Origin: an uncultured Bacteroidales bacterium | GTDB taxonomy: Bacteria; Bacteroidota; Bacteroidia; Bacteroidales; Muribaculaceae | Reading direction: 5' to 3' | DNA length: 64,000 nt | NCBI GenBank assembly: GCA_905210435.1 | Contig: CAJLWO010000001.1 | Span: 42,652 to 106,651, forward strand | Shown: positions 9,064 to 53,187 of the stretch, piece by piece | How the letters are laid out: each line of letters begins with the position of its first letter | Position numbering within the stretch: the first letter of the stretch is position 1 | Notes under the pieces: model-generated | Database searches by the model: none | Seen by the model: only the letters and a program-made list of their open reading frames with translations | Told to the model about the DNA's origin: nothing | Translations under genes and position numbers: made by a program

Positions 9064-10422
9064 ATGGAAAAACAGAAACGATTCATCCTCCCCGAGTCAG
9101 AGATACCCCGCTACTGGTATAATATTCAGGCCGACATGGTCAACAAACCACTGCCGCCGCTCAACCCCGCCACTAAGGAGCCTCTCAAACCCGAGGACTT
9201 ATACCCCATATTCGCCGAAGAGCTTTGCCGCCAGGAACTCAACCAGACCGACGCCTGGATTGAGATACCCGACCAGGTGAGGGAGATGTACAAATATTAC
9301 CGCTCGACCCCGCTTGTGCGCGCCTACGGTCTTGAAGAAGCGTTGGGTACTCCGGCCCACATATATTTCAAGAACGAGAGCGTAAGCCCAATGGGCTCAC
9401 ACAAGCTAAATTCAGCCATACCGCAGGCCTACTACTGCAAGCAGGAGGGAGTCAAGAACGTCACAACCGAGACCGGCGCCGGACAATGGGGCGCGTCGCT
9501 GGCCTACGCCGCACGTCTTTTCGGACTCGAGGCCGCAGTTTACCAGGTGAAAATCAGCTACGAGCAGAAGCCCTACCGCCGCTCTATCATGCAGACATTC
9601 GGCGCGCAGGTGACACCCTCCCCCTCCATGTCGACCCGTGCCGGCAAGGATATACTTACTGCCAACCCCAACCATCAGGGTTCGCTCGGCACCGCCATCT
9701 CCGAGGCCGTGGAGCTTGCCCGCACCACCCCCGACTGTAAATACACCCTCGGCTCGGTGCTCAGCCATGTCACCCTCCACCAGACCGTCATCGGCCTCGA
9801 AGCCGAAAAGCAGATGGAGATGGCCGGCGAATATCCCGACACCATCATAGCATGCTTCGGCGGAGGCTCCAACTTCGGCGGCCTCGCGTTCCCGTTCATG
9901 CGCCACACTATCCTGGAAGGTAAAAAGATACGTTTCATCGCCGCCGAACCGGCATCATGCCCCAAACTGACGCGCGGTAAATTCCAGTACGACTTCGGCG
10001 ACGAGGCCGGCTACACCCCGCTGCTGCCCATGTACACCCTCGGCCACAATTTCGCTCCGGCCAACATTCACGCCGGCGGTCTGCGCTACCACGGCGCGGG
10101 CGTCATCGTATCGCAGCTGCTCAAGGACGGCATGATGGAAGGAGTCGACATCGAGCAGCTCGAATCGTTTGAGGCCGGCACACTCTTCGCGCGCGCCGAA
10201 GGCATCATCCCCGCCCCCGAATCGTGCCACGCCATCGCCGCCACCATCCGCGAAGCCAAGAAATGCATCGAGACAGGCGAAAAGAAAGTAATCCTCTTCA
10301 ACCTCTCTGGCCACGGCCTCATCGACATGGCATCCTACGACAAATATTTCGCCGGCGACCTCGTCAACTACAAACTCTCCGACGAAGAAATCCAGCGCAA
10401 CCTCGACGAAATCAACAAATAA
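9064..10422 (+). CDS. TrpB-like pyridoxal-phosphate-dependent enzyme (tryptophan synthase beta-subunit-like, TrpB2/COG1350)
   Basis: 452 aa; N-terminal ESEIPRYWYNIQADM and PLP-fold motifs (GSHKLN, GGGSNFGG) typical of TrpB2. Confidence 0.75.
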   Translation: MEKQKRFILPESEIPRYWYNIQADMVNKPLPPLNPATKEPLKPEDLYPIFAEELCRQELNQTDAWIEIPDQVREMYKYYRSTPLVRAYGLEEALGTPAHIYFKNESVSPMGSHKLNSAIPQAYYCKQEGVKNVTTETGAGQWGASLAYAARLFGLEAAVYQVKISYEQKPYRRSIMQTFGAQVTPSPSMSTRAGKDILTANPNHQGSLGTAISEAVELARTTPDCKYTLGSVLSHVTLHQTVIGLEAEKQMEMAGEYPDTIIACFGGGSNFGGLAFPFMRHTILEGKKIRFIAAEPASCPKLTRGKFQYDFGDEAGYTPLLPMYTLGHNFAPANIHAGGLRYHGAGVIVSQLLKDGMMEGVDIEQLESFEAGTLFARAEGIIPAPESCHAIAATIREAKKCIETGEKKVILFNLSGHGLIDMASYDKYFAGDLVNYKLSDEEIQRNLDEINK

Positions 10423-18445: not shown

Positions 18446-18845
18446 TTTATTGCCTGCGGGGTAGCAAATCAGCTATAAATAGGTGTATTAATTATACTCC
18501 GATACCGGAGAAACTTAGTAAATTTGCTTAAACGTCATGGAAATGACGGCTCGTCCTGTACAGGCACGTTTCCTATATTGTGCTCTATATTGCGGGAAAA
18601 CATTTTTAGCGGTATTGCCGCATAAGTAACTGTTCAAAATTATTTTGACTATTATGACGGAAGGATTTTTCAGGCGATTTCCGGTGAGGAAGAAGGAGTG
18701 TAGCGAGCTACATGACTGATGACGAGACGGAAAGCGACGAAAAAGACTCCGGCAGAATATTAAAATAATGAGAATGGTTAGTATAAAATAATTTTAAACA
18801 GTTACTTATCTTTTTTTAACCTAACACCAAAATCCTTATATTGCC

Positions 18846-20327
18846 ATGTATCTTCTCGGTTACGACGTAGGGTCGTCGTCAGTCAAAGCATCGTTAGTTG
18901 AAGTAGAGTCGGGACGCACTGTCGCCGGCGATTTCTATCCGCGCGCCGAAGCGCCCATCAAGGCGTTGCGCCCGGGGTGGGCCGAGCAGCGGGCCGCCGA
19001 CTGGTGGAGCTACCTCAAGGAGGTCACTGCGTCGGTGCTGTCGCAGTCGAAGGTGAACCCTGCCGACATAAAGGCCATAGGCATATCCTACCAGATGCAT
19101 GGCCTCGTGGCGATAGACCGCGACGGACGCGAGCTGCGCGACGCCATCATCTGGTGCGACTCGCGCGGGGTGCCATACGGCGAAAAGGCGTTTGCCGAAA
19201 TCGGAGCTGACAGATGTCTCGACCGGTTGCTCAATTCGCCCGGCAACTTCACTGCGGCCAAACTGCAATGGGTGAAGGAGAACGAACCCGAAATCTTCGA
19301 AAAAATATACAAAGTGATGCTTCCGGGCGACTATATCGCCTATCGCCTTACCGGCGAGATATGCACCAATCCCGAGGGGTTGTCGGAATATATGCTGTGG
19401 GACTTCAAGGAGAATGCTCCCGCCCGGTTCCTCCTCGACTATTACGGCTACAATCCCGACATACTGCCCGAGGTGAAAGCCACATTCGCACCGCAGGGTA
19501 CGGTGACAGCCGCCGTGGCCGCCGAACTCGGTCTCGCCGAAGGTACGCCGGTGACATACCGTGCGGGCGACCAGCCCAACAACGCGCTGTCGCTCGGTGT
19601 GCTTGAGCCCGGACAGGTGGCGTCGACCGCCGGAACTTCGGGCGTGGTCTACGGCATCAACGGCACGGTCGACTACGACCCGCTGTCGCGTGTCAACAAT
19701 TTCGCCCACGTCAACCATTCCGCCGATCGGACACGCGTGGGTGTGATGACCTGCATCAACGGCACCGGTATACTCAACTCATGGATAAAGCGCAACGTGG
19801 CTCCTGCGGGATGCGGATACGCCAAGATGAACGACCTTGCCGCCGAGGTGCCCGTAGGGAGCGGCGGGGTGACGATACTGCCGTTCGGCAACGGAGCGGA
19901 GCGCGTGCTCCGGAACAAAGAAATCGGCTGCTCGATGCACGGCATCAACTTCAACGTGCATGACCGCCGCCACATCATGCGTGCCGCCCAGGAGGGAATA
20001 GTGTTCTCGTTTATGTACGGCATGGAGATAATGCAGGAGATAGGCATGAAAATCGACTGCATATCGGCCGGAAAAGCCAATATGTTCCTTTCTCCGATAT
20101 TCCGCGATACGCTCGCGTCGGTGTCGGGCGCTACAATCCGCCTGTATGAGACCGACGGCTCGGTGGGCGCCGCCCGCGGTGCAGGCATCGGAGCAGGCAT
20201 ATACAGGAATGCGGCCGAAGCATTCGAATCGCTGCAGCTCATCGGCGAGATTGCTCCCGCCGCCGACCGCACCCCCTACCTCGAGGCCTATGCCCGCTGG
20301 AAATCGGTGCTTGGGACAATGTTGTAG
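18846..20327 (+). CDS. xylB: Xylulokinase (FGGY carbohydrate kinase)
   Basis: MYLLGYDVGSSSVKASL N-terminus and FGGY motifs; first gene of xylB-xylA-transporter cluster. Confidence 0.85.
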   Translation: MYLLGYDVGSSSVKASLVEVESGRTVAGDFYPRAEAPIKALRPGWAEQRAADWWSYLKEVTASVLSQSKVNPADIKAIGISYQMHGLVAIDRDGRELRDAIIWCDSRGVPYGEKAFAEIGADRCLDRLLNSPGNFTAAKLQWVKENEPEIFEKIYKVMLPGDYIAYRLTGEICTNPEGLSEYMLWDFKENAPARFLLDYYGYNPDILPEVKATFAPQGTVTAAVAAELGLAEGTPVTYRAGDQPNNALSLGVLEPGQVASTAGTSGVVYGINGTVDYDPLSRVNNFAHVNHSADRTRVGVMTCINGTGILNSWIKRNVAPAGCGYAKMNDLAAEVPVGSGGVTILPFGNGAERVLRNKEIGCSMHGINFNVHDRRHIMRAAQEGIVFSFMYGMEIMQEIGMKIDCISAGKANMFLSPIFRDTLASVSGATIRLYETDGSVGAARGAGIGAGIYRNAAEAFESLQLIGEIAPAADRTPYLEAYARWKSVLGTML

Positions 20328-20493
20328 TTAAACAGGAGCACAATAGCTATGGCAGGAGCACAAAAATAATTTTGTCCTTTTGTTAAATCTTTTGTTCTCC
20401 TGTTTGAAATGTCCATCCGGACGCGGACGCGATGAATCGCGTCCCTACAAAATAAATAAACATAATAATCAACAACATAAACACTTTTATATT

Positions 20494-33639: not shown

Positions 33640-33832
33640 CAAGCCGCCTATTTATAACAAAAGGACAAAAGAGTCAACAACAGAACATTATTTATACTTA
33701 GGGGAGGGATTGCGTCTGTTGTTTTTTATTTAAACAAAAGAACAAAGGAACTGGAGTGCTGACTACGAAACAAAATCTATTTTTGTGCTTTTGTTACGGC
33801 TTTTGTACTATTGTTTATATTAATGCGATTGA

Positions 33833-34726
33833 CTATCTGTTTTTAAGGCCGAGGACGGTGAATTGGAGGAGGGGTTTGGCTATGCGGAGCGTCGGCCGGT
33901 AGCGCAATGAGCGGCACAACGCGCGGAATGCTCCGCCATACATCCTGTGGGCCAGACAGCGGCTCATGCGCATGTTGTACCATAGGGCAAGGTAGCGTTT
34001 CAATCCCGGAGTGTTTTTATTTTCGCGGTAAAGCAGTTCGAGTTGACGACCCACTTCGTCGACAGCCTCGGGCGGACGGGGATTGCTGAAACCGCGGTGA
34101 TATACCGCCGACGGCTCCGTGCAATACGCTATGCCGTAACGTGAGGCGAGGCGTGCCCACGTCAGCAGGTCCTCCCCCGACTTTATACCTTCGGGAAATC
34201 CCCCTACCGCCTGCAGCGCATCGCGGCGAGCCATCACCGCCGACGTCCACAGCGGAGGATTCGACTCCGCAGCCATCACGAAGTAATTGTCGATAACGCC
34301 GGTGTCGCCCGTGAACGGGAGGCGCGACAGCCGGTTGGGCACAATGCGCCCGTCGGCCATCAGATTCTCATAGTTTGTTGCGAATACCGCGCACTGAGGG
34401 TAGTTTCGGGCAAGCGCGGCAAGTGCCTGCAAGTGACCGGGACGCCACTCGTCGTCGGCGTCAAGAAATGTGACATATTCGCCGCGTGCCTCGGCTATGC
34501 CGCGGTTGCGCGCCGCCCCCACCCCGGCATTATCTTGCGGGATGACGCGGAGCATGTCGAGGCCATGTACGGCGGCGTAGCGGCGCACCACCTCCGCGCT
34601 GTCGTCGGTCGAACCGTCGTCGACCACGACGACCTCGCAATCGTGGAAATCCTGCGCCACAATCGAGCCGAGAGAGCGCTCTACGAGTTTCGCTTTGTTA
34701 TAAAGCGGTATTACGATGGATATCAT
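33833..34726 (-). CDS. Glycosyltransferase family 2
   Basis: MISIVIPLYNKAKLVERSLGSIVAQDF...VVVDDGSTDDS and DADDE (DXD) motifs; start set at MISIVIP (34726) rather than ORF start 34804. Confidence 0.8.
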   Translation of the reverse strand: MISIVIPLYNKAKLVERSLGSIVAQDFHDCEVVVVDDGSTDDSAEVVRRYAAVHGLDMLRVIPQDNAGVGAARNRGIAEARGEYVTFLDADDEWRPGHLQALAALARNYPQCAVFATNYENLMADGRIVPNRLSRLPFTGDTGVIDNYFVMAAESNPPLWTSAVMARRDALQAVGGFPEGIKSGEDLLTWARLASRYGIAYCTEPSAVYHRGFSNPRPPEAVDEVGRQLELLYRENKNTPGLKRYLALWYNMRMSRCLAHRMYGGAFRALCRSLRYRPTLRIAKPLLQFTVLGLKNR

Positions 34727-34777
34727 ATGCACAAATTTAGTAATTTTGCAGGAATTTTTGAAAGAGGACTGATAAAT

Positions 34778-35704
34778 ATGAGTGACTTTAACCTGAAAGG
34801 GCATCTGGCGATGTTCGGTGCCAATCTGACATGGGGACTCATGTCGCCCGTAGTGAAAATAGTGCTTGCATCGGGCACGGTGGCGCCGATGCTTCTTGTC
34901 GATTTCCGCATGGCCGGAGCGGCGGCGCTGTTCTGGCTTACATCATTGTTTCTGCCCCGCGAACATGTGCCTGCGCGCGACAAACTGCTGCTGTGCGGCG
35001 CCGGAATGCTCGGCATACTTTTCAATCAGGGTTGCTTCATACTCGGAGTGAGCATGACTACGCCGAGCGAGGCGAGCCTCGTGACTACCACCATGCCGAT
35101 GTGGGTGATGCTGCTGGCATGGCTGATACTGCGCGAACCTATCAGCCTGAAAAAGGCTGGAGGCATAGCGGTCGGAGCGACCGGAGCGCTTATACTGATG
35201 CTCGGCAGCCCGTCGCAAAGCGCCACGGCCTCCAATCCGCTCTTGGGCGATGTCATAGTGCTTACGGCGCAGCTCAGTTTCGCGCTCTACCTCACCCTCT
35301 ACCGCAACTTCATACGCAAATATTCGCTCGTGACGCTGATGAAGTGGATGTTTCTGTCGGCCACGGTGATTTCACTGCCCGTGAGCATCCCCGTTGTGCT
35401 GAGCACGTCGTGGGGCGCAATCAGCGCCGTGGAATGGTGCGGAGCAGCCGCAGTGGTAGTGTTTGCGACCTACCTTGCCTACATCGGAGTGATGACCGGC
35501 CAAAAACTTCTGCGCCCCACCGTCGTAGGCATCTACAACTACCTCCAGCCCATCGTAGCCACCATAGTAGGCATAACCCTCGGCATGGACAGCTTCACAC
35601 TGATAAAAGGCATAGCAGTAATCCTGATATTCAGCGGCGTATGGCTCGTAACAACAAGCCGCGCCCTCCCCACCGACCGACCCTCCGCACCTAAAGCAGC
35701 ATAA
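34778..35704 (+). CDS. DMT superfamily (EamA-like) transporter
   Basis: 10 TM, two EamA repeats; ORF track extends to 34433 only as antisense of GT2 gene; true start MSDFNLKG at 34778. Confidence 0.7.
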   Translation: MSDFNLKGHLAMFGANLTWGLMSPVVKIVLASGTVAPMLLVDFRMAGAAALFWLTSLFLPREHVPARDKLLLCGAGMLGILFNQGCFILGVSMTTPSEASLVTTTMPMWVMLLAWLILREPISLKKAGGIAVGATGALILMLGSPSQSATASNPLLGDVIVLTAQLSFALYLTLYRNFIRKYSLVTLMKWMFLSATVISLPVSIPVVLSTSWGAISAVEWCGAAAVVVFATYLAYIGVMTGQKLLRPTVVGIYNYLQPIVATIVGITLGMDSFTLIKGIAVILIFSGVWLVTTSRALPTDRPSAPKAA

Positions 35705-35850
35705 AATAAACAAAAACACAAAGGCCTTGACAAAGGAATAAAAATTTTATTGTGTTTTTGTATACGGATACTCATCAAAAACGCCTTAGATACGCTATAT
35801 AAGATACGAGATTTTTACTATCCCGATCCTTCGTCCTTACTGTTCTAAGG

Positions 35851-37290
35851 TCAGTTTTCAACTTTCCAATATCCCCCTTTTGAGCCCCCGACTCTCTCTA
35901 ATAGACCTTCTGATTTCAGTTTTTCTATATGGAATTGAACAGTCGACGTTGTGATATGTAAAGTTTCAGCAAGTTCATTCCTTGTAATCCTGGGATTTTC
36001 GCATATTAATTTCAATAATCTTTCCCGGGTCGGCAACTTTTTCTGACCGATTTTCTGACCGATTTTCTGACCGATTTTCTGACCGATGATAGGTCTGAAA
36101 TATGTGATTGTGGAAGTCGCCATGTCACTTTCAATCTCAACTTTTTCTCCCGTCAGGGATTCCCATTTCTTTATGCGGCCTATTCCGTAACCTGCATTTT
36201 CTGCCAAACGCGCATAACGAAAGAACATGATTATATTGGGATTACGTGGTATTGATTTAATCTTCTTGACATTTCCGGTTAGAGCCACAGGGAATTGCCC
36301 GGGGTTCTGAAATTCGATTTTATCATTGTAGATAGTGACAGATGAATGCATCGGACCAAAATAATCGGCATGTGCCAAAAGATTTATCAATCCCTCGCGA
36401 AGACTGTACAATTGAGAGTTGTCTTCAGGAGAAAAACCGTCAGGTCCTGGCATGAACGGATTGTCAGCAAAAGACCGTAGCCGTTGTATGAGCATCTGAA
36501 AGTATTCCCAGATGTTCTCCTGTTCCGGCATACGATAGGTATAGCGCACTTCCGCATCATCGTAGGAACTACCGGGAATCTCTCGGTAATCAATCCAAAA
36601 ATGGCGAAGATGTTTGATTATAACATTCCTGCGTCCAAAAGTCAACAATCCGCCAAAGGTCAGCACCCCATTGTCAGCTATGCCTGTCCGTTCACAAAAC
36701 TCATCATGACCTAACGAATTGAACTCCAGTTCCGGATTGAACCGTTGCAACCGACGACGGTAAGTTTCGATTGAATTAGCATTTAAGTCATTTAAAGACG
36801 TGCCCGGAACTGCCATTTCAGACTTACATCCAAACGTTTTCTCTCTGAGCAATATACCAATCTCGATATCGGTTGCACGTTGATCACCGCTACCCACACG
36901 GATATAGGTATTAGACAGGTTATTGTTCATATACACAGGCTTGCTGTCACTTGGTGGTATATATACGGCAAAAACTATATTCCCATCAAAGTCCATTCGG
37001 TCTATTCTTGCCAATATGGGAACATTAAACTTTGACGTCGAACGTAGAATTGCAGCCAAGTCTTGTTCCATCTTTTCCGGCTTGTCCACACCAACAATCT
37101 CAAACGTAGAAATCCTCTTCCCTTTTTCCTCGTGTACGCCGAGAATTATCCAGCCCCCTGCGGTGTTGGAAAAAGCACTTACAGTTTCCCACATGGATTT
37201 AGGGAGACCACCCGAGGCCTCCTTTACCTCAAAGTCATTCCATTCTATATCGTTGAGCCTTTGCCGCAGTTCTTCTTTTGTCATCTCCAT
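35851..37290 (-). CDS. COG2865-type putative regulator/ATP-binding protein: AlbA_2 (Schlafen-like) domain + GHKL-like HATPase_c_4 domain + C-terminal winged HTH
   Basis: N-terminal LPKSMWETVSAFSNTAGGWIILGV (AlbA_2/Schlafen box); C-terminal ELAETLHITTSTVQFHIEKLKSEGLLERVG HTH; gene much more AT-rich than flanks; contains IGQK x4 repeat. Confidence 0.65.
   Translation of the reverse strand: MEMTKEELRQRLNDIEWNDFEVKEASGGLPKSMWETVSAFSNTAGGWIILGVHEEKGKRISTFEIVGVDKPEKMEQDLAAILRSTSKFNVPILARIDRMDFDGNIVFAVYIPPSDSKPVYMNNNLSNTYIRVGSGDQRATDIEIGILLREKTFGCKSEMAVPGTSLNDLNANSIETYRRRLQRFNPELEFNSLGHDEFCERTGIADNGVLTFGGLLTFGRRNVIIKHLRHFWIDYREIPGSSYDDAEVRYTYRMPEQENIWEYFQMLIQRLRSFADNPFMPGPDGFSPEDNSQLYSLREGLINLLAHADYFGPMHSSVTIYNDKIEFQNPGQFPVALTGNVKKIKSIPRNPNIIMFFRYARLAENAGYGIGRIKKWESLTGEKVEIESDMATSTITYFRPIIGQKIGQKIGQKIGQKKLPTRERLLKLICENPRITRNELAETLHITTSTVQFHIEKLKSEGLLERVGGSKGGYWKVEN
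36043..36090. repeat. Perfect 12-bp tandem repeat x4 inside COG2865 gene (encodes IGQK x4)
   Basis: ttttctgaccga repeated four times exactly, in frame. Confidence 0.9.
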
Positions 37291-37469
37291 ATTTCCTTTC
37301 GACGCAAAATTACGAATTTTTCGGAAGATATAACGTAAGTCTCTGATTTTATTAGTAAGTTATGCGACTGAATGGCAGAAAAAAACGAAGACACAAAAGC
37401 CATGACAAAAGATTGTACTTTTGCCTTGGCTTTTGTGCCTTTGTTTAGATAATTATACTGCGCTATACG

Positions 37470-39539
37470 TTATTTCCAGTCGGCGTCCTCGCCGTTGGCG
37501 AACCATGTGCAGCTCTTGTATTGGAACTGGCCTTTGCCGGTGACGGTGTAGACCACGGTCTCTACCGAGCGGGCGCCGGTGTAGGCGGTGAAGTTGACGG
37601 TATAGGTCACTTCCATGCCGTCGACGGGCACTGCGTCGGGATTAAGCTGTGCGAGTACGGCGGGCATTGTCTCGAGGCAGAAACGTTTCTGCATGAGGGC
37701 GGTCACCTCGTCGTCGGTGTACTCTTCGTAGAGTTCGGGGAACTTGCTCTTGGCGTTGGCACCGCGTATGTCGACGTTGCAGTAATAGAACGATGTGCCG
37801 GAATAGAATTCCGAATTACCGTATTTCACATCCATGTAGGGACCGTCCTTAAGCGATACGCCACCCATAGGCTTGGAAATATTCTCGAACACCCACTCTA
37901 CGGCGGCAGTGTAGTACGTAACGGAAGGCTCGGTACGGCTTTCGGGGAGCGTGATGACTACCGACGGGTCATAGAGCCAGAAACCGTTGCGCTTTACAAA
38001 CTGCGAAGTGGTCTCGCCGGCGTTGACCACCCATTCGGTGCCGTTGAAGATATACTGTGCGGCCTGATAAGAGGCACCGGAACCGTTATAGTAGTTGTAG
38101 GCTACGACGATCTCATCTTCGGCGGCAGCGTATGGATATTTGTTTTTAAGGTAGACGGGAAGAAGCTCGGCGGGAAGAGTTCCCGAGAGATTTCCGTAAG
38201 TCTGTCCCATGGCCTTGTAGTCGGCAGGCTGGAGCACTTCGACTCCGGTCATCGACAACCACGATGTGCCGTCGAAATACAGGATGGCATTTTTGACCGT
38301 AGTGGAAACTTCATTGACAGGAGCACGATGTACGGGAGCACCCGAAGCATTGGCGGCATTCTCAACCGACGTGATTACGACGTTGAAGAATTTGCCCGAT
38401 GAAACCGACGCGAAATATCCGCGGACAATATAAGTCTCGCCGGCTGTAATCTGGTCGCGTATGAACTGCGGCACCTGATAACCGCTTCCCTGTGCGGTCG
38501 AAGCGCCGTCGACAGCGAAGTTATAATAGTTGCCGCTGACGGATGCCTTGCCGGTGAACTGCACATACTGCGCAAGCTCGTTGCCGGTACGTGCCACTGC
38601 CTCGTCCATCATGGCGCCGGTGTAGACCACGGGAGCGGGATAGGTGTATTCGCCCGTTCCCTCTACCGTATAGCTCTCTTCGGTAATTGCAATCTGCAGG
38701 CCTTTGCCGTATGACCCCACCTCGCCGCTAAGCGAAATCTGGTTGCCTACCGCAACAGAAGCCACATCAAAGCCCGAAGCCTGGTAGCAAAGGATAGAGC
38801 CGGAGTTGTCGGTAAGGATAAAACCGCGGTTGTTGACAGCGGTGATATATCCCTTGATGTCGACCGCGTCACCCTCGGCTGCGGAGCCTATGACCGAAGT
38901 CGGCTCGAACGACGGTTCGGGGACATCCGGGTCGCCGCCGATTGTGCCGAAAATCGGGTTTTCGGAAGCCTCGTTGTAAGTCACGACTGCATACTGTCCG
39001 GCTTCGGCATCGGGGAACTCAGCTTTGAGGATACCGTTGACTGTACGCGACGAGAACGGATGTGAGGGCGAAAAAGCATTGATGTAGTTGTCATCGCTGC
39101 CCCATATCGTCATGTAATCGTCTTCCGAGAGGGTCAGCAGCTCCACTCCCTTATTGATAAGGAGTACGCTCTGCGGACGGTTGGCGGCTACGTTGTATGT
39201 CACCTTGACAGCCGAACCGTTGGAGAGGGCGAAGAAATTGTTGGTCGAGTCGCGCAGTATCGCAGGGATAAACTGACGAGCCTCGGCGTCGGTAGTAAAT
39301 GAATTTGTAGCGGCAATCAGCGCTCTCTCCTCCTGGGTGCCTATTGAAGTATAAGGCGCCTGGTTCAGGATTTTGGTATAGTCGGCAACAGTGAGAGTAT
39401 AGTTTAACGTCTCTACCGACGTGCCCGGTTCCGGCACTTCGAAACCGTCGAGTTTATCGTTCCAGTCGTTCTCGTCGCAACCGGCGAGGAGTGCCACGGC
39501 GCCGAGAGCAAGGAAACTGTGTTTTATAATTGTATTCAT
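37470..39539 (-). CDS. Large surface lipoprotein of unknown function, partner of upstream TonB-dependent receptor
   Basis: Signal peptide with lipobox LLAGCDEN; 689 aa; no motif I can assign; 24-nt gap to receptor gene. Confidence 0.45.
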   Translation of the reverse strand: MNTIIKHSFLALGAVALLAGCDENDWNDKLDGFEVPEPGTSVETLNYTLTVADYTKILNQAPYTSIGTQEERALIAATNSFTTDAEARQFIPAILRDSTNNFFALSNGSAVKVTYNVAANRPQSVLLINKGVELLTLSEDDYMTIWGSDDNYINAFSPSHPFSSRTVNGILKAEFPDAEAGQYAVVTYNEASENPIFGTIGGDPDVPEPSFEPTSVIGSAAEGDAVDIKGYITAVNNRGFILTDNSGSILCYQASGFDVASVAVGNQISLSGEVGSYGKGLQIAITEESYTVEGTGEYTYPAPVVYTGAMMDEAVARTGNELAQYVQFTGKASVSGNYYNFAVDGASTAQGSGYQVPQFIRDQITAGETYIVRGYFASVSSGKFFNVVITSVENAANASGAPVHRAPVNEVSTTVKNAILYFDGTSWLSMTGVEVLQPADYKAMGQTYGNLSGTLPAELLPVYLKNKYPYAAAEDEIVVAYNYYNGSGASYQAAQYIFNGTEWVVNAGETTSQFVKRNGFWLYDPSVVITLPESRTEPSVTYYTAAVEWVFENISKPMGGVSLKDGPYMDVKYGNSEFYSGTSFYYCNVDIRGANAKSKFPELYEEYTDDEVTALMQKRFCLETMPAVLAQLNPDAVPVDGMEVTYTVNFTAYTGARSVETVVYTVTGKGQFQYKSCTWFANGEDADWK

Positions 39540-39563: not shown

Positions 39564-42275
39564 TTAGAACGCTATTTTAAGACGGAGAGAATAAGTGCGG
39601 CCGAACGAATAGAACACGCGGTAGGCGTTTTCCCATGTGCCGCGGCTGCCCGATGCGGTGTATGCGTCAACAACATAGTTGTAGTTGAAGAGGTTGTTGA
39701 CATTGCCGAACAGGGTGGCTTCGAAGCCGGCCATCTGGAACTTGTAGCTTGCCGACATGTCGAGCTGGTTGCCCCAGGGAATTCTCCACGGATCGGCCAC
39801 GTTGACCTCCTTGAAGGGAATAAGGTCGTTGTCAGATACCGTATAGTCGGAGTAGTTGCGTGCCGAGAATGTCCAGTCGGCGCCTATGCGCATGCCTTTG
39901 AACGGTTTTACGGTCACACCGATTGCACCTGTGGTCTGTGCCGAGCCGCCCACTTTGCGTCCTTTCTGGTTGAGTATTGACCATGCATGGTCTTCGGCGA
40001 ACACGCCCGAAGCAAGTTTGCCCGAGGTGTTGGCAAGAGGCTGTCCGAGGTCATTGTAGTAGTAACCCTTGGCGTTTGAATCCCAGTTCCAGTCGCCTAT
40101 CGAGAGCATACCGTCGATATCGAGCCACTGTGTGGGGCGGTATTTCAGGTTGAGCTCCAGACCCATGTGACGGGCGTCGACACCCGACATGTTGAGATAG
40201 TAGCGCGAGCCGTCGCCCATTGTCGACGAGCGGGTGGTAGTCTTGTCCATCCACTTCGTGTAGTAAGCGTTGAATGTGGCCGTGAATATCGGCGAATGGT
40301 ATTCGTAACCTACTTCAATCGAACCGCATTTTTCATTGACGGGATCGGGGTTGATGGCGTTGGATGTGGCCTGCGCGGCAAATACGCCTTTGGCGAAGAA
40401 GGGGGCGCGGGTGAGGTAACCGCCGTTGAAGTATACGTTGTTATGCTTGTCGATATTATAGTTGGCGCCACCTTTTACCGAACCGGCGATAAAGTTGGGC
40501 TTCTCCGAAGTGCCGTGTTCCTTGTCATAATAGAAACGGTCGACACGCCAGTAGGTAGTGTTGTTGAGCGAGCCGGCGAGCACCATAGTCAGCTTGTCGG
40601 AGAGGGTGGTGTATTCCACCTGGGCGAAACCGCCTTCCTGCACCGTATAGCCGTCATAGTCGCGGTACACGACATCGCCTACGCCGAGTTTCTGGTACTT
40701 CCAGTTGGGGTCGGCAGCCGCTGCATTGTTGGCGGGATTGACACCTTTACGGCTCGAGTCATCCATGAAGTACGCACCGTTGTAGAGGTCGGTGATTTCG
40801 TTGGTGTGCTTGCCGATATAGTAGCGCACGTCGATACCGGCGGTAAGATTGAGTTTCTTCTCGATAAGCTCATTCTTATAGGTCGATACGAGGCCGAACC
40901 ACTTGTGGGAGTTGATTGACTTCGACATAATCATGTTTGAACCGGTCTCCGACGCCATGTTCATCTCCTGGATGGCGGCGTAGTCAAACGTACCGTCCTC
41001 GCGGCGGAAAAGGGTGTTTAGGTTACCGTTGGATGCGCCGTACCACGAAGCATTGCTGAGCGACTGGCCGTTGTAGGTGCCGCGTCCCTGACCCGACGAA
41101 CCGTATCCGCTTGCGAGCGACACATATACTGCCGACGACAGCGACGACTTGTGGTCAATCTGCCAGATATGGTTCAATGAAATCTGAGGCTTGTGATATA
41201 CGTTCTTTGTCGACGAGCGTACCTGGCCGTCCATGTCGTAACCGAATGTCGGGTTGTAGCGGTACATGCTCTCGCCGTCCATATAGTTCTTGACATTCTG
41301 CCAGTTCTCGATTGAGAGACCGTCCTGCGACGAACGTTTGTAGTGCACTTGCGGCGAGCCGAATGCGGTCAACGACAACTGGTGCGCGTCATTGATGCGT
41401 TTCGACACGTTGACGAAATAGGTGTAGGCGTTGAAGTTGGTGCCCTGCACGTAGCCGTCGCCCCATTTGCGCGTGCCCATCAACGACACCGCCCAGCCGT
41501 TTTTCATCAGGCCGGTCGACACATTGAATCCGATATGGTTCATGCCGTCATTGCCCATGCCGTAGAATACAGCGCCGCCCTTCTTGGCGTCGAGCGAGCG
41601 AGTGGTGATATTGAGCGTACCGCCCACCGAGGGAACGGAGATGATTGATGCGCCCAGACCGCGCTGCACCTGCATCATCGAAGTCACGTCGGAGAGGCCG
41701 GCCCAGTTCGACCAGTACACCCATCCGCCTTCCATATCGTTGACCGGAATACCGTTGACAAGCATACCTGTGTTCTCCGACTTGAAGCCGCGGATATTGA
41801 TTTTGGCGTCGCCGTAGCCGCCGCCGTCCTTTGTGGCCCACACGCCCGGAGTAGTCTTGAGCACTTCGGGGAATTCCTGGCCGCCAAGTTTATTCTCAAT
41901 AAGAAGAGCGTCGACGCTCGATGCCGCAACCGGGGTCTTGCGCGTGCGTGCAATCGATTGGGTCACAACGACGTCCTTGAGCATCTGTGAAGCGACCTCG
42001 AGAGTGATGTTGCCCATCGAGGCCGATGCTGGAACTTTGGCCGTCTTGTAACCGATATACTCGATGGTCAGCTCCTTGGTGTTGTCTGGCACCTTGATGG
42101 TGAAATTACCGTCGATATCAGTGGTGACGCCGGTTTTGGCTCCGGGTACCATAACAGAAGCTCCGATGAGAGGTTCGCCCTGTTCATCGGTGATTGTGCC
42201 ACGACACACATAGTCGGCAAAGGCGGTGGAACCCGCCACCAACAATGTTGTGGCAAAGAGAGTGATTCTCTTCAT
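39564..42275 (-). CDS. TonB-dependent outer-membrane receptor with N-terminal carboxypeptidase-regulatory-like domain
   Basis: Signal peptide; CarbopepD_reg-like segment (DEQGEPLIGASVMVPGAKTGVTTDIDGNFTI); plug; C-terminal beta-barrel ending in aromatic F. Confidence 0.75.
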   Translation of the reverse strand: MKRITLFATTLLVAGSTAFADYVCRGTITDEQGEPLIGASVMVPGAKTGVTTDIDGNFTIKVPDNTKELTIEYIGYKTAKVPASASMGNITLEVASQMLKDVVVTQSIARTRKTPVAASSVDALLIENKLGGQEFPEVLKTTPGVWATKDGGGYGDAKINIRGFKSENTGMLVNGIPVNDMEGGWVYWSNWAGLSDVTSMMQVQRGLGASIISVPSVGGTLNITTRSLDAKKGGAVFYGMGNDGMNHIGFNVSTGLMKNGWAVSLMGTRKWGDGYVQGTNFNAYTYFVNVSKRINDAHQLSLTAFGSPQVHYKRSSQDGLSIENWQNVKNYMDGESMYRYNPTFGYDMDGQVRSSTKNVYHKPQISLNHIWQIDHKSSLSSAVYVSLASGYGSSGQGRGTYNGQSLSNASWYGASNGNLNTLFRREDGTFDYAAIQEMNMASETGSNMIMSKSINSHKWFGLVSTYKNELIEKKLNLTAGIDVRYYIGKHTNEITDLYNGAYFMDDSSRKGVNPANNAAAADPNWKYQKLGVGDVVYRDYDGYTVQEGGFAQVEYTTLSDKLTMVLAGSLNNTTYWRVDRFYYDKEHGTSEKPNFIAGSVKGGANYNIDKHNNVYFNGGYLTRAPFFAKGVFAAQATSNAINPDPVNEKCGSIEVGYEYHSPIFTATFNAYYTKWMDKTTTRSSTMGDGSRYYLNMSGVDARHMGLELNLKYRPTQWLDIDGMLSIGDWNWDSNAKGYYYNDLGQPLANTSGKLASGVFAEDHAWSILNQKGRKVGGSAQTTGAIGVTVKPFKGMRIGADWTFSARNYSDYTVSDNDLIPFKEVNVADPWRIPWGNQLDMSASYKFQMAGFEATLFGNVNNLFNYNYVVDAYTASGSRGTWENAYRVFYSFGRTYSLRLKIAF

Positions 42276-48424: not shown

Positions 48425-49204
48425 TCAGGCTTTTCTAGCCTTCAGTTTGCGCATGCTTTCTCCGGACAGCTCGATTGTGTGCGCCGAGTGTACTATACGG
48501 TCGAGGATGGCATCGGCCACAGTCGGGTCACCGACCATGTCGTACCAGCTTGAGGAAGGGTACTGGGAGGTGATGATGATCGATTTGCGCTCGTTGCGGT
48601 CTTCGATTATGTCGAGCAGGATCGGACGCTCCTTCGCGTCAAGGGGCACCAGAAAAAGATCGTCGAGGATGAGCAGCTGACATCGTTCGATTTTCTTGAG
48701 CTCGGGCTCAAGATTGTTCTTGACTTTTGCGACCTTTAGCTGTCCGAGCAGTTTGGAGGCGTTGGCATACAGGGTGCGTATGCCACGTTTGCAAGCCTCA
48801 TGTCCCAGTGCGCAGGCCAGGAAGCTTTTACCTGTGCCTGATGATCCGGTGATGAAGAGATTCTGACCGTTTCGGACGAAGTCGAGTGTCGCCAGGCGCT
48901 CCATCTGGTTGCGGTCGAGCCCCCGGTTTGTGGCGTAGTCGATTTCCTCGAGATATGCCTTGTAGCGGAACGCCGCGTTTTTTGTCAGGCGCATTACGGC
49001 GGCTTGTGCGCGCCAGTCCCATTCGCGGTGCAGGAGCATCGACAAGAAGGAATCCGGAGTCATTGACTGTGCGGTTGTTCCGGCAAGGCTTTCGCGGAAG
49101 GCCTCTGCCATTCCGTGCATCTTCATGCGGTTCATCAGGTCCAGCGATGTTGTGTTCTGGTCCGGTTGCTGGGTGGCCGGTGCGGTTTTATCTGTTGTTT
49201 CCAT
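48425..49204 (-). CDS. istB: IS21-family helper ATPase IstB
   Basis: Walker A GSSGTGKSFLACALGHEA, Walker B LLILDDLF; start assumed at internal METTDK overlapping istA stop. Confidence 0.85.
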   Translation of the reverse strand: METTDKTAPATQQPDQNTTSLDLMNRMKMHGMAEAFRESLAGTTAQSMTPDSFLSMLLHREWDWRAQAAVMRLTKNAAFRYKAYLEEIDYATNRGLDRNQMERLATLDFVRNGQNLFITGSSGTGKSFLACALGHEACKRGIRTLYANASKLLGQLKVAKVKNNLEPELKKIERCQLLILDDLFLVPLDAKERPILLDIIEDRNERKSIIITSQYPSSSWYDMVGDPTVADAILDRIVHSAHTIELSGESMRKLKARKA

Positions 49205-50786
49205 TACTGTTGGTGTTGTTGGGTTCGTTTTTGCGGCTGTAGTATTCGCGGCCGCGGATGTTCTTGTGTACCGGAGCAGGGACTGCAGCCGTCGGGCCAC
49301 AGGCAGTTCCGTCCTCATCCGGCAGGAAGTCAGCGTCTTCGCCCTGTTCGAGGATTTTCCTGACGGTCTGATAGCCATATGCCGCCTTCATCGACGCGCA
49401 GGCGCACGCCGCCACGAGTCGGTCTGTGCCATACTTCTTTTCAAGCGACAGTATGCCGCGGCAGCTGCTGAAGGATTTCGGCGGATACTGCATCATGGCA
49501 TCCACTTCGTGGAGGTAGTCAAGAACGATGTTGTCCATTTCAGCGGCTCGCTTGAAGAGTTCCTCCAGATCCTTGTCATACGGGCCGTAATGGCCGGGCA
49601 GGTTGTGTTCCTTCTTCCATGAGTATGTGTAGGGTATGTCGCAGCGGTCGTGTGTGGCCACGAGATTGAGGCCGCAGTAGATCTCAACCGTGTCCGCGTC
49701 ATAAAGGATGACCACACGTTTGCCGACATGCTCGCGCGGCACGCTGTAATGGTGCTTGAACAGGGAGACATAACAGTTCTTGCCCACTGTCATCAGCTTT
49801 CGTTCCTTGATGACAAACGGTTTCTCGGGAAGGGGACGCAGGAAGTCCTTTTCGCCCTGCAGGAACATGTCTTTACGCGACATATTCCTTCCTGCCATCA
49901 GCCTTTCGTTGAAATCGTGCAGCGATATGTGAATCGCCGTGTTCAGTTCGTCCAGCGACGGGAAGACAATCCCCTCTATGTCAAGATACACTGACTGGTA
50001 CAGCAGCTTGACGGCGTTCTCGACAAGGGCCTTGTCTTTGGGATGGCGGACCCGCGCGGGATATACGGCGCATCCGTAATGTTCGGCGAAGGCCGCGAAC
50101 TCCTCGTTGATCACAGGCTCGTTCCGGTCGCTGGTCTTTACCGCCGCCTTCAGGTTGTCGGGCACGATGGCGGCCGTCACGCCTCCGAAGTACTCAAATG
50201 CATTCTGACAGGCCTTGATCAGGTCTTCCTTCCGTTGCGACCATACCGCCTCGCAGTACGTGTAGTGGCTGAACGGAAGGATGGCGACGAACACTTCCGC
50301 TTTCTTGACCTCTCCCGTCATTCCGTCCACCACTTCCAGCTTGTCTCCTGCGAAGTCGACATACATCTGGTCGGCGGCATAGTGCTCGACGTGCCCCACA
50401 ACCGTGGTGTGGAACCTGTACTGCCGGACGGAGCGTTTGAACACGGACTCCTGAAAGCCGTCGGGATGCTCGCTTCTGTACTCGTTGAAAAGCTTGCGGA
50501 CTGTCATGCCCTTGCGGGAAAGCCGGGCGACATAGCCCGGTATCAGTGCGTCAAGTTCCAGTTGACGCTGCGACGGCTCGCGGTGACGGAACTCCGTGCA
50601 TCCGAACATCTCACGGAGATGCTCTTCCGAGAGTTCAAGCAGCTGTTCGGTAGTCTTGCCGCTTGAAATGAACAGCCGGACATACTTGCGTACGGTGTTG
50701 CGGGAAAGGTGAAACGTGTTGGCCGTCTCTTTTATTCCCATTCCGACTGCGTAACATCGAAGGATGTTTTTTAATTTTGCAATCAT
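49188..50786 (-). CDS. istA: IS21-family transposase IstA
   Basis: N-terminal HTH (GMGIKETANTFHLSRNTVRKYVR), DDE integrase core; likely start MIAKLKN at 50786 (ORF opens 50828). Confidence 0.85.
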   Translation of the reverse strand: MIAKLKNILRCYAVGMGIKETANTFHLSRNTVRKYVRLFISSGKTTEQLLELSEEHLREMFGCTEFRHREPSQRQLELDALIPGYVARLSRKGMTVRKLFNEYRSEHPDGFQESVFKRSVRQYRFHTTVVGHVEHYAADQMYVDFAGDKLEVVDGMTGEVKKAEVFVAILPFSHYTYCEAVWSQRKEDLIKACQNAFEYFGGVTAAIVPDNLKAAVKTSDRNEPVINEEFAAFAEHYGCAVYPARVRHPKDKALVENAVKLLYQSVYLDIEGIVFPSLDELNTAIHISLHDFNERLMAGRNMSRKDMFLQGEKDFLRPLPEKPFVIKERKLMTVGKNCYVSLFKHHYSVPREHVGKRVVILYDADTVEIYCGLNLVATHDRCDIPYTYSWKKEHNLPGHYGPYDKDLEELFKRAAEMDNIVLDYLHEVDAMMQYPPKSFSSCRGILSLEKKYGTDRLVAACACASMKAAYGYQTVRKILEQGEDADFLPDEDGTACGPTAAVPAPVHKNIRGREYYSRKNEPNNTNSNGNNR

Positions 50787-51032
50787 ATTCTGTAGTTTTT
50801 GAGATTGATCCCCGCCGTGCCAGGACAAGGAGTCTCAAAGCTACAAAAAATTCCCCTGCCGATGCTTCGACAGGGGTCATTTTTATGGCGCCCGCAAGGG
50901 TCATTCTTATTTCGCCCAAAGGGGTCAAATCCCGCGTGCCCGAAGGGGTCAAACGCACGCGCCTTTTCCACTATCTTTACTTCTGTAAGTAAGATATACC
51001 AGACAATTTGTTTTTCTGTCATTTTCTTGTTC

Positions 51033-51545
51033 TTATCTAATTGTTAGGCTCATTGTTGTTATACATTGTTTAATTATAGATAAATCGTGAATATCCTTCT
51101 CTCTTAAATCGTAGCCCGAATGGAATACTTGTTGCCCTTTTGCAGAAATGCAAGGGATGCTTCTGCCTTCAAAGACTGCTGTTCCAAAATAGTCCGGTTG
51201 AAATTCATACCAGCCTCCATCCAAGTCGGCTTGTTTGGAAGTGCCGTCCGCATTCAAGACAAAAGGATGGATATCAATATAGCCTAATTCTTTGCTATAC
51301 AGTTCCATACGGGTGGGCAACCAATTTGTTTCAATTTGATATCCTCTCTCCTGCAAAAGATCAAGGAGTTGGTCTGTATAATTGGCATCAAAATCAATGT
51401 CAATATCTCTATGCAAGCGGGTTTGCTGTCCGTACAAGACATCCACTCCCCAGCCTCCATCCAACCAAAACTGCATGTCCAGGCTTTCCAACAAGTCCAA
51501 AACTTGAAATAACTCTGTAATCGTAGTGTGTTCTTTCTTTGTCAT
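51033..51545 (-). CDS. lnu: Lincosamide nucleotidyltransferase, Lnu(A)/Lnu(AN2) family
   Basis: 170 aa; ELFQVLDLLESLDMQFWLDGGWGVDVLYGQQTRLHRDIDIDFDA...IPCISAKGQQVFHSGYDL closely matches LinA/LinAN2 sequences as I recall them. Confidence 0.8.
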   Translation of the reverse strand: MTKKEHTTITELFQVLDLLESLDMQFWLDGGWGVDVLYGQQTRLHRDIDIDFDANYTDQLLDLLQERGYQIETNWLPTRMELYSKELGYIDIHPFVLNADGTSKQADLDGGWYEFQPDYFGTAVFEGRSIPCISAKGQQVFHSGYDLREKDIHDLSIIKQCITTMSLTIR

Positions 51546-51569
51546 ATAATAATTCTTTAATAAATAATA

Positions 51570-52775
51570 CTATGCGTAATTATCCAACTGCTTGATTGAA
51601 GAAATAAAATTTGCACCCACTCCAATCAGAAAGATAACCCATCCGCTGATCATAAAGACGGATGTGATACCCCATGCTTCCACCCAATATCCTGAAGCTA
51701 CGATACCCAGCATTGATGGAAAGGTACTCAAACTAAAGATGAGAGAAAAAGTCCGTCCAAGCATGTCCGAAGCCAAGTTCTGCTGAATAATAGCGATGAA
51801 AAGCGCATGGTAAATGGAATAGGCTATGCCTCCTGTAAATGTTAGGCAAACAAAACCTATAAATGCGCTTGATGGTAAATAACTGGCGCTAATCAGATAC
51901 AATCCCAATATCACATAAGCCGTATGCATCACTAATGTTTGCTTGCTTTTCAAAGCCTTACAGGCAAGTACTAAACCGCCCAACAATGCCCCTGAGCCCC
52001 AACCCATTTCCACAACTCCCATTTGCAAAATGTTTCCGTTGAAATGCAGAAGCGTCATAAAAGGAAATAACGTAAAAACAGGCATAAGGACAAAAGTCAC
52101 CAGCGTAAAGCATACGAATAAAGGCAAAATGCCCATTGTACGCCGCAAGGTATGCCAACATTCCGTCAGTTCTTTTTTGAAATCTGGAAGAACTTTCGTT
52201 TTTTGAAGAGAAGGAATCTGGACACAAAGTAAGGTCAGACAAGCAGCAACAGCTCCGATCACATCTATGAGCAGAATATACTGTATGGGAAGCCAAACAA
52301 CGAGGCTTGCCCCTACAACGGGAGCTATCACCTCACTGAAGGATTGAATGGAATGGTACAAACCTGATACCCTGACAAGATGGTGCTTGGGAACCAGTAG
52401 AGGGATGCTTGCCTGTAAAGCAGGTGCATGAAACGTACTGCCTATTGAACGACAAGCAGTCAATAGATAAAAAAAAGAAAGGTCTTTATAACCCTTGGTT
52501 ATCACAATAAAAAGACATAGGGTACAGAACGCGATGAACAAGTCCGAATAAAACATCGTTTTCTTTCGATTCCATCTGTCAACATAGACCCCGGCAAACA
52601 AGCCTAATACAAATTGTGGTAAAAATCCAGCTAAAATAGCCAGAGATAAAGCTGTCGGGGATTTAAATTCGTTGCTAATCCAAAAAATAATGGAGAAGCC
52701 AACAATCGTACTTGTTAAAATAGATATGAGTTGGCCTATTCCTATCACGGCCAAAGTTGATTTCCAATGATTCAT
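51570..52775 (-). CDS. mef: Macrolide efflux MFS transporter, Mef(En2)-like
   Basis: 401 aa, 12 TM MFS; adjacent to lnu gene as in NBU2; AT-rich codon usage. Confidence 0.65.
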   Translation of the reverse strand: MNHWKSTLAVIGIGQLISILTSTIVGFSIIFWISNEFKSPTALSLAILAGFLPQFVLGLFAGVYVDRWNRKKTMFYSDLFIAFCTLCLFIVITKGYKDLSFFYLLTACRSIGSTFHAPALQASIPLLVPKHHLVRVSGLYHSIQSFSEVIAPVVGASLVVWLPIQYILLIDVIGAVAACLTLLCVQIPSLQKTKVLPDFKKELTECWHTLRRTMGILPLFVCFTLVTFVLMPVFTLFPFMTLLHFNGNILQMGVVEMGWGSGALLGGLVLACKALKSKQTLVMHTAYVILGLYLISASYLPSSAFIGFVCLTFTGGIAYSIYHALFIAIIQQNLASDMLGRTFSLIFSLSTFPSMLGIVASGYWVEAWGITSVFMISGWVIFLIGVGANFISSIKQLDNYA

Positions 52776-53102
52776 TGTGCTAATATTTCATGCGTTTATA
52801 GATAAGTACTTTCGTACATTAAGCAAAACGAAATTCTATCCACACAAAAAACTTGTATTATAATCCACTCCTGACGTTGGAATACAATAACAAATACTTT
52901 CAGGACGATGTAAAGTCCTGAAAAATCAAACTGAATGGATAGATAAATATTAGTCTTTTCTCATCGGATTCTTTTAATATCGCTACTCTTTTATTATGTA
53001 GTGGTTGTATTATCTTAAATAAAACAAAAACACCCGACTTTACATTCTTGGGTGCAAAACTGGGTGTTTGTTTTGCAATTTGCTGATTTTCAGCGTTTGT
53101 TG

Positions 53103-53187
53103 CGGAGAGAGAGGGATTCGAACCCCCGGAGGTGTGACCCTCAACGGTTTTCAAGACCGCCGCAATCGACCACTCTGCCATCTCTCC
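53103..53187 (-). tRNA. tRNA-Ser (anticodon TGA), type II with long variable arm
   Basis: Reverse complement GGAGAGATGGCAGAGTGGTCGATTGCGGCGGTCTTGAAAACCGTTGAGGGTCACACCTCCGGGGGTTCGAATCCCTCTCTCTCCG; anticodon loop CTTGAAA. Confidence 0.85.

Follow-up and report, generated by a model that had tools for sequence, protein, structure and literature searches.

The commonest class of prokaryotic Schlafen proteins carries a GHKL ATPase domain (60,692 of 103,533 proteins), and the supradomain formed by the SLFN_AlbA_2 and GHKL ATPase domains, named 'Schlatpase', is found stand-alone or with a C-terminal helix-turn-helix (HTH) domain; most Schlatpases are small, with nothing else or with the C-terminal HTH (bioRxiv 10.64898/2026.05.29.728809). 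In SLFN-pAgo (RzAgo), binding of ATP to the GHKL domain brings about tetramerisation and tRNA cleavage, and CRISPR-associated Schlafen (Cash) proteins also cleave tRNA. Motifs of the E-x4-E-x-K, SAFSN and E/N-box type are needed for tRNA cleavage and ATP-driven tetramerisation in SLFN-pAgo and Cash, and where relatives of the SLFN domain or of the SLFN-GHKL module have been tested by experiment, they are defence nucleases. We describe a solitary gene for a Schlatpase with a C-terminal winged HTH (wHTH) in a 64,000-nucleotide stretch of contig CAJLWO010000001.1 from an uncultured Bacteroidales bacterium of the Muribaculaceae (the window, to which all positions refer unless a contig is named). 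The gene lies between an EamA transporter gene and a gene for a 689-amino-acid (aa) protein (Table 1). The locus is strongly polymorphic among strains, and on balance we favour the view that promoter and open reading frame (ORF) form a horizontally acquired, self-contained unit that split a resident palindrome, and that the product is a probable defence nuclease.

Synteny and tblastn were used to compare the site in 18 genomes. Conspecific contexts (n = 10) were recovered by exact match to the 193-aa RNase HII, an exact look-up with the 202-aa RNase HII ORF having given no match, and they fall into four structural haplotypes: E, H1, H2 and B. Haplotype E, found in L065 (a 249-kb contig with flanks 98.0% and 98.5% identical to the window), is empty. 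Reading from the EamA stop codon it has a complete palindrome of ~77 nt, a spacer, an ancestral GC-rich hairpin and the stop codon of the 689-aa gene. Window and L065 agree as far as 35761 and once more from 37469, with 1,686 bp in the window replacing ~134 bp. Haplotype H1 (L062) contains the gene and keeps the GC-rich hairpin, while R, the palindrome that stands beside the 689-aa gene in the window, is absent. Three-way alignment shows that H1 differs from E by nothing more than a clean insertion, at whose two ends the 12-nt direct repeat ACAAAAACACAA stands in exact copies. Around this core some 40 nt are duplicated at 82% identity, and the insertion point is the boundary between 5' arm and loop, that is, the hairpin apex of the palindrome. 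This 12-nt/40-nt duplication in H1 is the real insertion footprint.

Haplotype H2 comprises the window, L063 (100% identical to the window over the 5 kb compared, 34000-39000), L060, L061, L066-L069, and L001 and L008, which have the gene at this site in a 93-97% identical form. Its EamA-side junction is identical to that of H1; toward the 689-aa gene, R and then a T-run stand in place of ~290 nt that include the GC-rich hairpin. Haplotype B (L064 and L009) has R, the promoter and the first ~25 codons in common with H2, and its allele encodes 476 aa, 50% identical to the window's protein, without the GQK repeat treated below. Here the L element, the part of the palindrome that survives next to EamA in the window, is gone, along with the last 7 EamA codons. 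Between the window's allele type (type A) and that of haplotype B (type B), the flank toward the 689-aa gene is 99% identical and the EamA/GT2 flank 95%. Homologues and syntenic loci assign the window to a Muribaculaceae species, and one contig, MNQK01000005.1 ('Bacteroidales bacterium 52_46'), has flanks 99% identical to the window. The conspecific contigs, being variously empty, filled, allele-swapped and frameshifted, bear out the original prediction of an inserted, strain-variable, AT-rich single-gene unit. The gene is as AT-rich as was claimed, its GC content being 0.431, while the window as a whole has 0.537 and the flanking genes have 0.55-0.60.

Empty sites, which had been anticipated in related genomes, also occur in sister species, whose 689-aa proteins are 82-85% identical to the window's. 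Two of these (L011 and L012) have only ~100 bp between the stop codons, a stretch that contains a single GC-rich hairpin and shows no trace of the 23-mer discussed below. An insert extent first read from the homology break with sister species (35663-37447) is superseded by the comparison with L065. Of the other sister species, two (L013 and L025) are without EamA altogether, and in one (L010) the site holds a 540-bp segment without the gene. Within the latter, at L010 10277-10532, is a GC-rich element resembling a miniature inverted-repeat transposable element (MITE), with 58-nt terminal inverted repeats that are 91% complementary. Across species, the site looks like a hotspot of insertion. 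A different MITE-like element, of ~195 bp, lies between R and the promoter in L009 (~10174-10368), in L064 and at the start of L008. It has terminal inverted repeats CAGAGCTTGTCTAAATTT...AATTTTAGACAAGCTCTCAG and a 3-4-bp duplication (TCAG), its insertion point corresponds to window 37367/37368, and no copy of it was found anywhere in the window.

The gene was originally described as flanked by near-identical 23-bp direct repeats, of the kind that a site-specifically inserted cassette would leave. Such repeats exist, the left at 35715-35737 (offset by 1 nt from the first reading) and the right at 37390-37412, but 'near-identical' overstates them: they agree at 19 of 23 positions, the longest identical run is 7-8 nt, and the ungapped similarity around them reaches 58 nt at 71% identity. 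Taken as 22-mers with at most 3 mismatches they are the sole such pair in the 64 kb, and none of 100 shuffles gave any. The right 23-mer was rightly placed within an imperfect palindrome, being the inner arm of 37383-37411 / 37418-37446 (29-nt arms, 86% complementary).

A 79-column hidden Markov model (HMM) was built from full-length palindromes found elsewhere. It finds four matches in the window: R (E 9e-16), the copy at 33739-33817 (E 2e-8), the copy at 20329-20405 (E 4e-8) and L (35709-35761, E 9e-4), the last being partial and covering model positions 24-77 only. The element at the empty site (L065 4385-4461) is matched over its full length (E 3e-10). RNA folding gives -35.7 kcal/mol (z -10) for R, which is followed by U7, -32.0 kcal/mol (z -7) for the intact empty-site element, and -14.7 kcal/mol (z -3.7) for the truncated L of the window. 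The family consensus can be written TAAACAAAGGCACAAAAGCCTTGRCAAAAGCACAA-loop-TTGTGCTCYTGTCARGGCTTTTGT, and a span of 3.7 kb holds three of the window's four copies. When metagenomes were scanned with a degenerate pattern, 30 loci were obtained, five of them the window's own locus. At ~13 of the 30, on Muribaculaceae-like contigs, long palindromes of the same family lie 30-60 nt past the stop codons of unrelated genes, named by eye as FG-GAP-type, LuxR-like, serpin, TatC and sugar transporter genes. No AlbA_2 gene was seen near these ~13 palindromes in the roughly 1 to 15 kb of DNA available per locus. It appears to be confined to few lineages of Muribaculaceae, the other loci compared having given no matches to the family. 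The case that the 23-mers are common genome-wide, named beforehand as one that would count against an inserted cassette, thus holds in part, in that they belong to a dispersed family found 3' of unrelated genes.

The 23-mers are thus each an arm of a separate copy of this family, and their likeness is family likeness; the left one is the surviving EamA-proximal arm of the resident palindrome that the cassette split. They are not left and right attachment sites (attL/attR) or a target-site duplication of a single event, because R is absent from H1 and L is absent from B. The claim that they arose as two products of one insertion therefore fails on the first count, R belonging to a separate terminator palindrome that the filled L062 lacks, and the claim that they form one pair fails on the second, the haplotype with the 50% allele having R without L. 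The forecast of one repeat copy at the empty site was right in its letter, L065 having the left repeat, and wrong in its reason, since that copy is a pre-existing palindrome and neither an attachment site nor a target-site duplication. We had also considered the two hairpins as terminal inverted repeats of an insert at 35663-37447 (35-nt arms, 74% complementary). This reading was dropped because the conspecific empty site shows that L pre-exists and that R lies outside the original footprint. We lean against taking R for the displaced 5' arm of the interrupted palindrome, as the agreement (~25/36 by eye) is at the family level only.

An explanation that makes less of the palindromes is that the flank similarity is a by-product: a larger segment carrying the gene would have arrived by homologous recombination from a lineage in which the gene already stood at this site, and the palindromes would be the terminators of the three genes. 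The dispersal of the family just past stop codons of unrelated genes fits this well, as do the strong fold of R before a U-run and the lower identity of the EamA/GT2 flank compared with the other flank between allele types. So does mosaicism at the N-terminus, where some type A alleles have a segment, LLSRLNGVEW, that agrees with type B instead of the window, a sign of intragenic recombination. We nevertheless regard this explanation as doubtful, because it leaves unexplained both the position of the insert at the apex of an intact palindrome and the 12-nt/40-nt duplication of L062, and because it merely moves the original insertion into another lineage.

The unit that we take to have been inserted includes its own promoter. 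The motif ATCT(T/C)CCGAAAAATT-GTAATTTTG, also written ATCTCCCGAAAAATT-GTAATTTTG (promoter sequence CCGAAAAATTCGTAATTTTG), contains a Bacteroidetes-type -7 box, TAATTTTG, at 37305-37312. The Bacteroidetes -7 consensus is TAnnTTTG. The motif ATCTCCCGAAAAATT-GTAATTTTG is also found upstream of a 68% identical homologue at a third locus. Folding of the gene's 3' untranslated region as a terminator of its own was not significant (z -0.9), and a sigma-70 promoter and terminator scan was set aside as uninformative for a Bacteroidota genome.

In other Muribaculaceae a copy encoding an 87% identical protein (P0003) stands at an unrelated locus, and its DNA similarity to the window is limited to 37330-35848, that is, ~40 nt of promoter plus the ORF. 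The P0003 module is ~2 kb long, holds one gene, and lies between 65-95-nt direct repeats, each a pseudo-copy of the tRNA-Ser(TGA) 3' part, which adjoin the real tRNA-Ser(TGA) gene. In L002 (7699-9908) and L003 (7688-10121) tandem pseudo-tRNA-Ser 3' fragments ~105 nt apart bound the AlbA_2 module, and one strain has up to four tandem pseudo-copies plus the real tRNA. Directly upstream of the module in L003 is an island carrying a reverse transcriptase of retron type (PADLOC E 1e-88) together with a WYL gene. The layout is the classic one of decayed or cis-mobilisable integrative elements. All copies have a GC content of 0.42-0.44, against 0.54-0.57 for their host flanks. No close relative of the protein was found among IMG/VR viral contigs, and plasmid and phage collections gave distant homologues only (25-43% identical), some on plasmids and others in Streptococcus phage satellites near the record start (~1.3-2.8 kb of ~13 kb).

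Such copies raise the question of whether the window's unit is itself a site-specific integrative cassette, cargo like that of a cis-mobilisable element (CIME), mobilised in trans by a tyrosine integrase, with the flanking repeats as attL and attR. The left repeat does occur once at the empty site, the EamA-side junction is identical in H1 and H2, integrases lie ~12 kb away in some strains, and the P0003 module sits between its repeats at a tRNA-Ser integration hotspot. Moreover an identical core at both insert ends, with one copy in the empty site, is seen in L062 and L065, where the exact 12-nt core lies in a ~40-nt imperfect direct repeat around the insert. The window's 23-mers do not show this pattern: they come from two palindromes with an identical run of at most 7-8 nt, and either one can be missing, R in L062 and L in type-B strains. 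The terminator palindrome and the tRNA-Ser sites have no att-like sequence in common, the P0003 and window units share nothing outside promoter and ORF, and no integrase is linked to the unit. An excised-circle junction, GAGTATCCGTAT-ACAAAAACACAA-CAGTCCTAAC, was not found in IMG/VR, a weakly relevant database and the sole one searched. We consider a cassette of this kind unlikely.

The protein has the three-part architecture that was first read from its sequence. Pfam finds SLFN_AlbA_2 (68.8 bits against a cut-off of 25.3, E 8e-19), C-terminal of it HATPase_c_4 (41.3 bits against a cut-off of 26, E 1.5e-10), and HTH_24 (46.2 bits, E 3e-12) in a region where many wHTH families overlap. NCBIfam has no specific family for the 479-aa protein, giving HTH matches below cut-off only, and an exact-protein look-up with the 479-aa sequence gave no match. 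With the motif definition of bioRxiv 10.64898/2026.05.29.728809, the Schlafen nuclease motif E(x)4(D/E)xK reads E16-WNDF-E21-V-K23, and the Schlafen box is SAFSN at aa 38-42 (SAFAN in the definition). In an alignment of 35 homologues, E16, E21 and K23 are kept in at least 90%, E72/E75 are invariant in the SLFN domain, and GHKL motifs fall at aa 299-369 (N-box E299/N303, N329-P-G331, G367-Y-G369), so that catalytic motifs of both nuclease and ATPase are conserved. The AlphaFold model has a mean predicted local distance difference test (pLDDT) score of 80. Foldseek matches it over its full length to 3LMM (DIP2311, a structural-genomics protein; E 1e-18) in the PDB. The N-terminal domain matches 2KYY and the SLFN11 N-terminal domain (7FEX), the middle domain the GHKL (CA) domains of PDK, BCK and histidine kinases, and the C-terminal domain wHTH proteins of MarR type.

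The linker before the HTH contains the perfect 12-bp repeat encoding IGQK four times, as first read and as recovered by Tandem Repeats Finder, and is disordered in the AlphaFold model (pLDDT below 50 at aa 403-418). Its length varies in frame between strains, as the original prediction had suggested it might, conspecific strains having 3 to 5 GQK units: three in L066 and L069, four in the window and five others, and five in L001, L045, L060, L067 and L068. The next clade has 2-3 units, 2-5 are found across the near clade, and distant relatives have GQK motifs too, in a longer linker. The repeat may act as a flexible tether of variable length. A second site of small-scale variation is a G5 homopolymer, which is G6 in L066, L068 and L069, from three different samples; the frameshift leads to a stop after 63 aa. 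The G6 tract may reflect real inactivation or phase variation.

From its motifs and relatives, the protein is probably an ATP-gated, oligomerising RNA/tRNA nuclease with a role in defence or abortive infection. Presence in some strains and absence from others, alleles that are deeply diverged and copies turned into pseudogenes are in keeping with an accessory gene of defence type, and we hold this with moderate confidence, a level set by the housekeeping neighbourhood and by weak PADLOC matches. It is quite improbable that the gene encodes a plain transcription factor, as in its COG2865 annotation 'predicted transcriptional regulator', with AlbA_2 and GHKL domains for sensing ligands or nucleic acids and no defence role, since a well-scoring HTH_24/MarR/ArsR-like wHTH, a conserved promoter motif at different sites that could be an autoregulatory operator, and a solitary position among metabolic and transport genes are set against nuclease and ATPase motifs conserved across 35 homologues, presence/absence, 50% allele replacement and pseudogenisation unlike those of a housekeeping regulator, and tested SLFN and SLFN-GHKL relatives that are defence nucleases.

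Returning to a horizontally acquired unit that split a palindrome, recombination at the palindrome would have inserted it, catalysed in trans or through microhomology between homeologous palindromes. Alleles would later have been swapped through homologous recombination in the flanks and in the gene's conserved 5' end, and the wHTH could serve as a DNA sensor or as an autoregulator of the conserved promoter. Several points weigh against this reading. There is no recombinase, transposase or partner gene in or beside the unit. The E and H1 states are each represented by a single contig (L065 and L062), and the difference between them may be an insertion into L065 or a precise excision from an L062-like state. 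The common haplotype, including the window, has lost the footprint on the side of the 689-aa gene, so that the 12-nt duplication is seen in L062 only. As to function, the gene is solitary among housekeeping genes, PADLOC matches to it are weak and, apart from the pAgo model (E 2e-5 over aa 30-361), HTH-driven, the G6 frameshifts could be assembly errors at a homopolymer, and we found in the literature no experimental test of a stand-alone Schlatpase-HTH protein. A bolder proposal, which we regard as a long shot, is that stand-alone Schlatpase-HTH genes are minimal mobile defence modules, made up of one gene with its promoter and captured again and again at terminator palindrome apices and tRNA 3' ends with ~12-90-nt duplications. 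They would be mobilised in trans by resident integrases or, more speculatively, aided by the protein's own nuclease and DNA-binding activities, and the palindrome family would be a genome-wide landing pad.

Table 1. Features of the Schlatpase-HTH locus and its surroundings, in window positions
Feature	Position	Strand	Basis
Schlatpase-HTH coding sequence, 479 aa (Schlafen-like AlbA_2 nuclease domain, GHKL ATPase, C-terminal winged HTH)	35851..37290	-	ORF, Pfam, AlphaFold, Foldseek
SLFN_AlbA_2 domain (PF04326), aa 16-139	36874..37245	-	Pfam, alignment
HATPase_c_4 Pfam match (PF13749), aa 317-375	36166..36342	-	Pfam, alignment, Foldseek
Winged HTH (HTH_24), aa 421-465	35896..36030	-	Pfam, Foldseek
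12-bp tandem repeat, 4.1 copies, 100% matches, consensus TTTTCTGACCGA	36039..36087	-	Tandem Repeats Finder
G5 homopolymer, codons 45-46	37154..37158	-	Compared among conspecific contigs
Promoter region travelling with the gene	37295..37330	-	Conserved upstream of homologues at other sites
DNA absent from the L065 empty site, 1,686 bp replacing ~134 bp	35762..37447	.	L065 comparison
L, EamA-proximal remnant of the resident ~77-nt palindromic terminator-like element; holds the left 23-mer	35707..35761	+	L065 comparison, HMM, folding
Junction core TTGTGTTTTTGT (reverse complement of ACAAAAACACAA)	35750..35761	+	Twice, exact, around the L062 insert; once in the empty site
R, complete palindrome then U-run; intrinsic terminator of the 689-aa gene; inner arm is the right 23-mer	37382..37447	-	HMM, folding
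Palindrome family copy between MFS and GT2 genes; conserved in another species (L010)	33739..33817	-	HMM
Palindrome family copy, full-length	20329..20405	.	HMM
EamA transporter, flanking core gene converging on the cassette	34778..35704	+	Annotation, synteny
689-aa protein, flanking core gene downstream of the TonB-dependent receptor	37470..39539	-	Annotation, synteny
TonB-dependent receptor	39564..42275	-	Annotation

In the window the gene has housekeeping neighbours and so does not stand in a defence island, the setting that had been suggested for proteins of this architecture. The 689-aa protein has no Pfam match even at E 1e-3 and is conserved across Muribaculaceae, Alistipes and Rikenellaceae. 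A SusD-like partner gene is expected beside a TonB-dependent receptor of this type, and the 689-aa gene occupies its position. On the other flank, the GT2 gene beside EamA (33833-34804) has 94-95% aa identity among conspecific strains, compared with 97-100% for its neighbours, a divergence that suggests either a recombination tract or diversifying selection adjoining the cassette. Farther off, the stretch 48425-53187 carries IS21 (IstB and an rve/Mu-type transposase), an aminoglycoside 2''-adenylyltransferase and an MFS_3 efflux gene, and is adjoined by tRNA-Ser(TGA) at 53102-53187. In other conspecific strains the same stretch has either an element with a tyrosine integrase or a toxin-antitoxin pair with HipA, and this strain-dependent content marks it as a second variable region, carrying resistance genes. 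L067 has a second Schlafen/HATPase_c_4 paralogue (18529-19959, 476 aa) ~8 kb beyond RNase HII, adjoining a sigma-70/GH97 block that is absent from the window.

Stand-alone Schlafen-GHKL-HTH proteins form the largest prokaryotic Schlafen class, with tens of thousands of members, and we found no demonstrated function for them in the literature. The locus offers a well-defined natural test case in a Muribaculaceae species of the mouse and human gut: its haplotypes are isogenic-like and include empty, filled, allele-swapped and frameshifted ones, the catalytic motifs are intact, and linker length differs from strain to strain. It also documents a dispersed palindromic terminator family as an insertion point. 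Its value is as a good example and an experimental candidate, not as a new principle: the protein belongs to a very common known class and is not a new kind of system, and the one unexplained element is an insertion that lies at a hairpin apex, comes with a 12-40-nt duplication and has no recombinase linked to it.

Set beside known systems, the locus resembles several in part. REP-like palindromes are known insertion targets of mobile DNA. Like repetitive extragenic palindromes and bacterial interspersed mosaic elements (REP/BIME) and intrinsic terminators, the family described here consists of ~77-nt imperfect palindromes just 3' of diverse genes, with strong folding and T-runs; unlike REP/BIME, no REP-associated tyrosine transposase (RAYT) or other transposase turned up for the family, and none was searched for. 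CIMEs are matched in layout by the P0003 paralogue, an integrase-free one-gene module of ~2 kb between pseudo-tRNA-Ser fragments at a tRNA gene. They are not matched by the window, where tRNA-Ser is ~16 kb from the gene, no pseudo-tRNA-Ser copy was found, and the cassette is without a convincing att pair. SLFN-pAgo and Cash have in common with the protein described here the Schlafen nuclease domain and its catalytic motif, RzAgo has the GHKL ATPase as well, and a PADLOC pAgo model matches aa 30-361; this protein differs from them in having no Argonaute core and no Csx15/CARF sensor, its sole extra domain being the wHTH. The Schlatpase-HTH proteins, with DIP2311 of C. diphtheriae (PDB 3LMM) as the solved example, have the same architecture, fold and motifs as the 479-aa protein, and there is no architectural difference between it and other Schlatpases; what this locus adds to them is the variable GQK linker, the insertion in a palindromic terminator and the polymorphism within a population.

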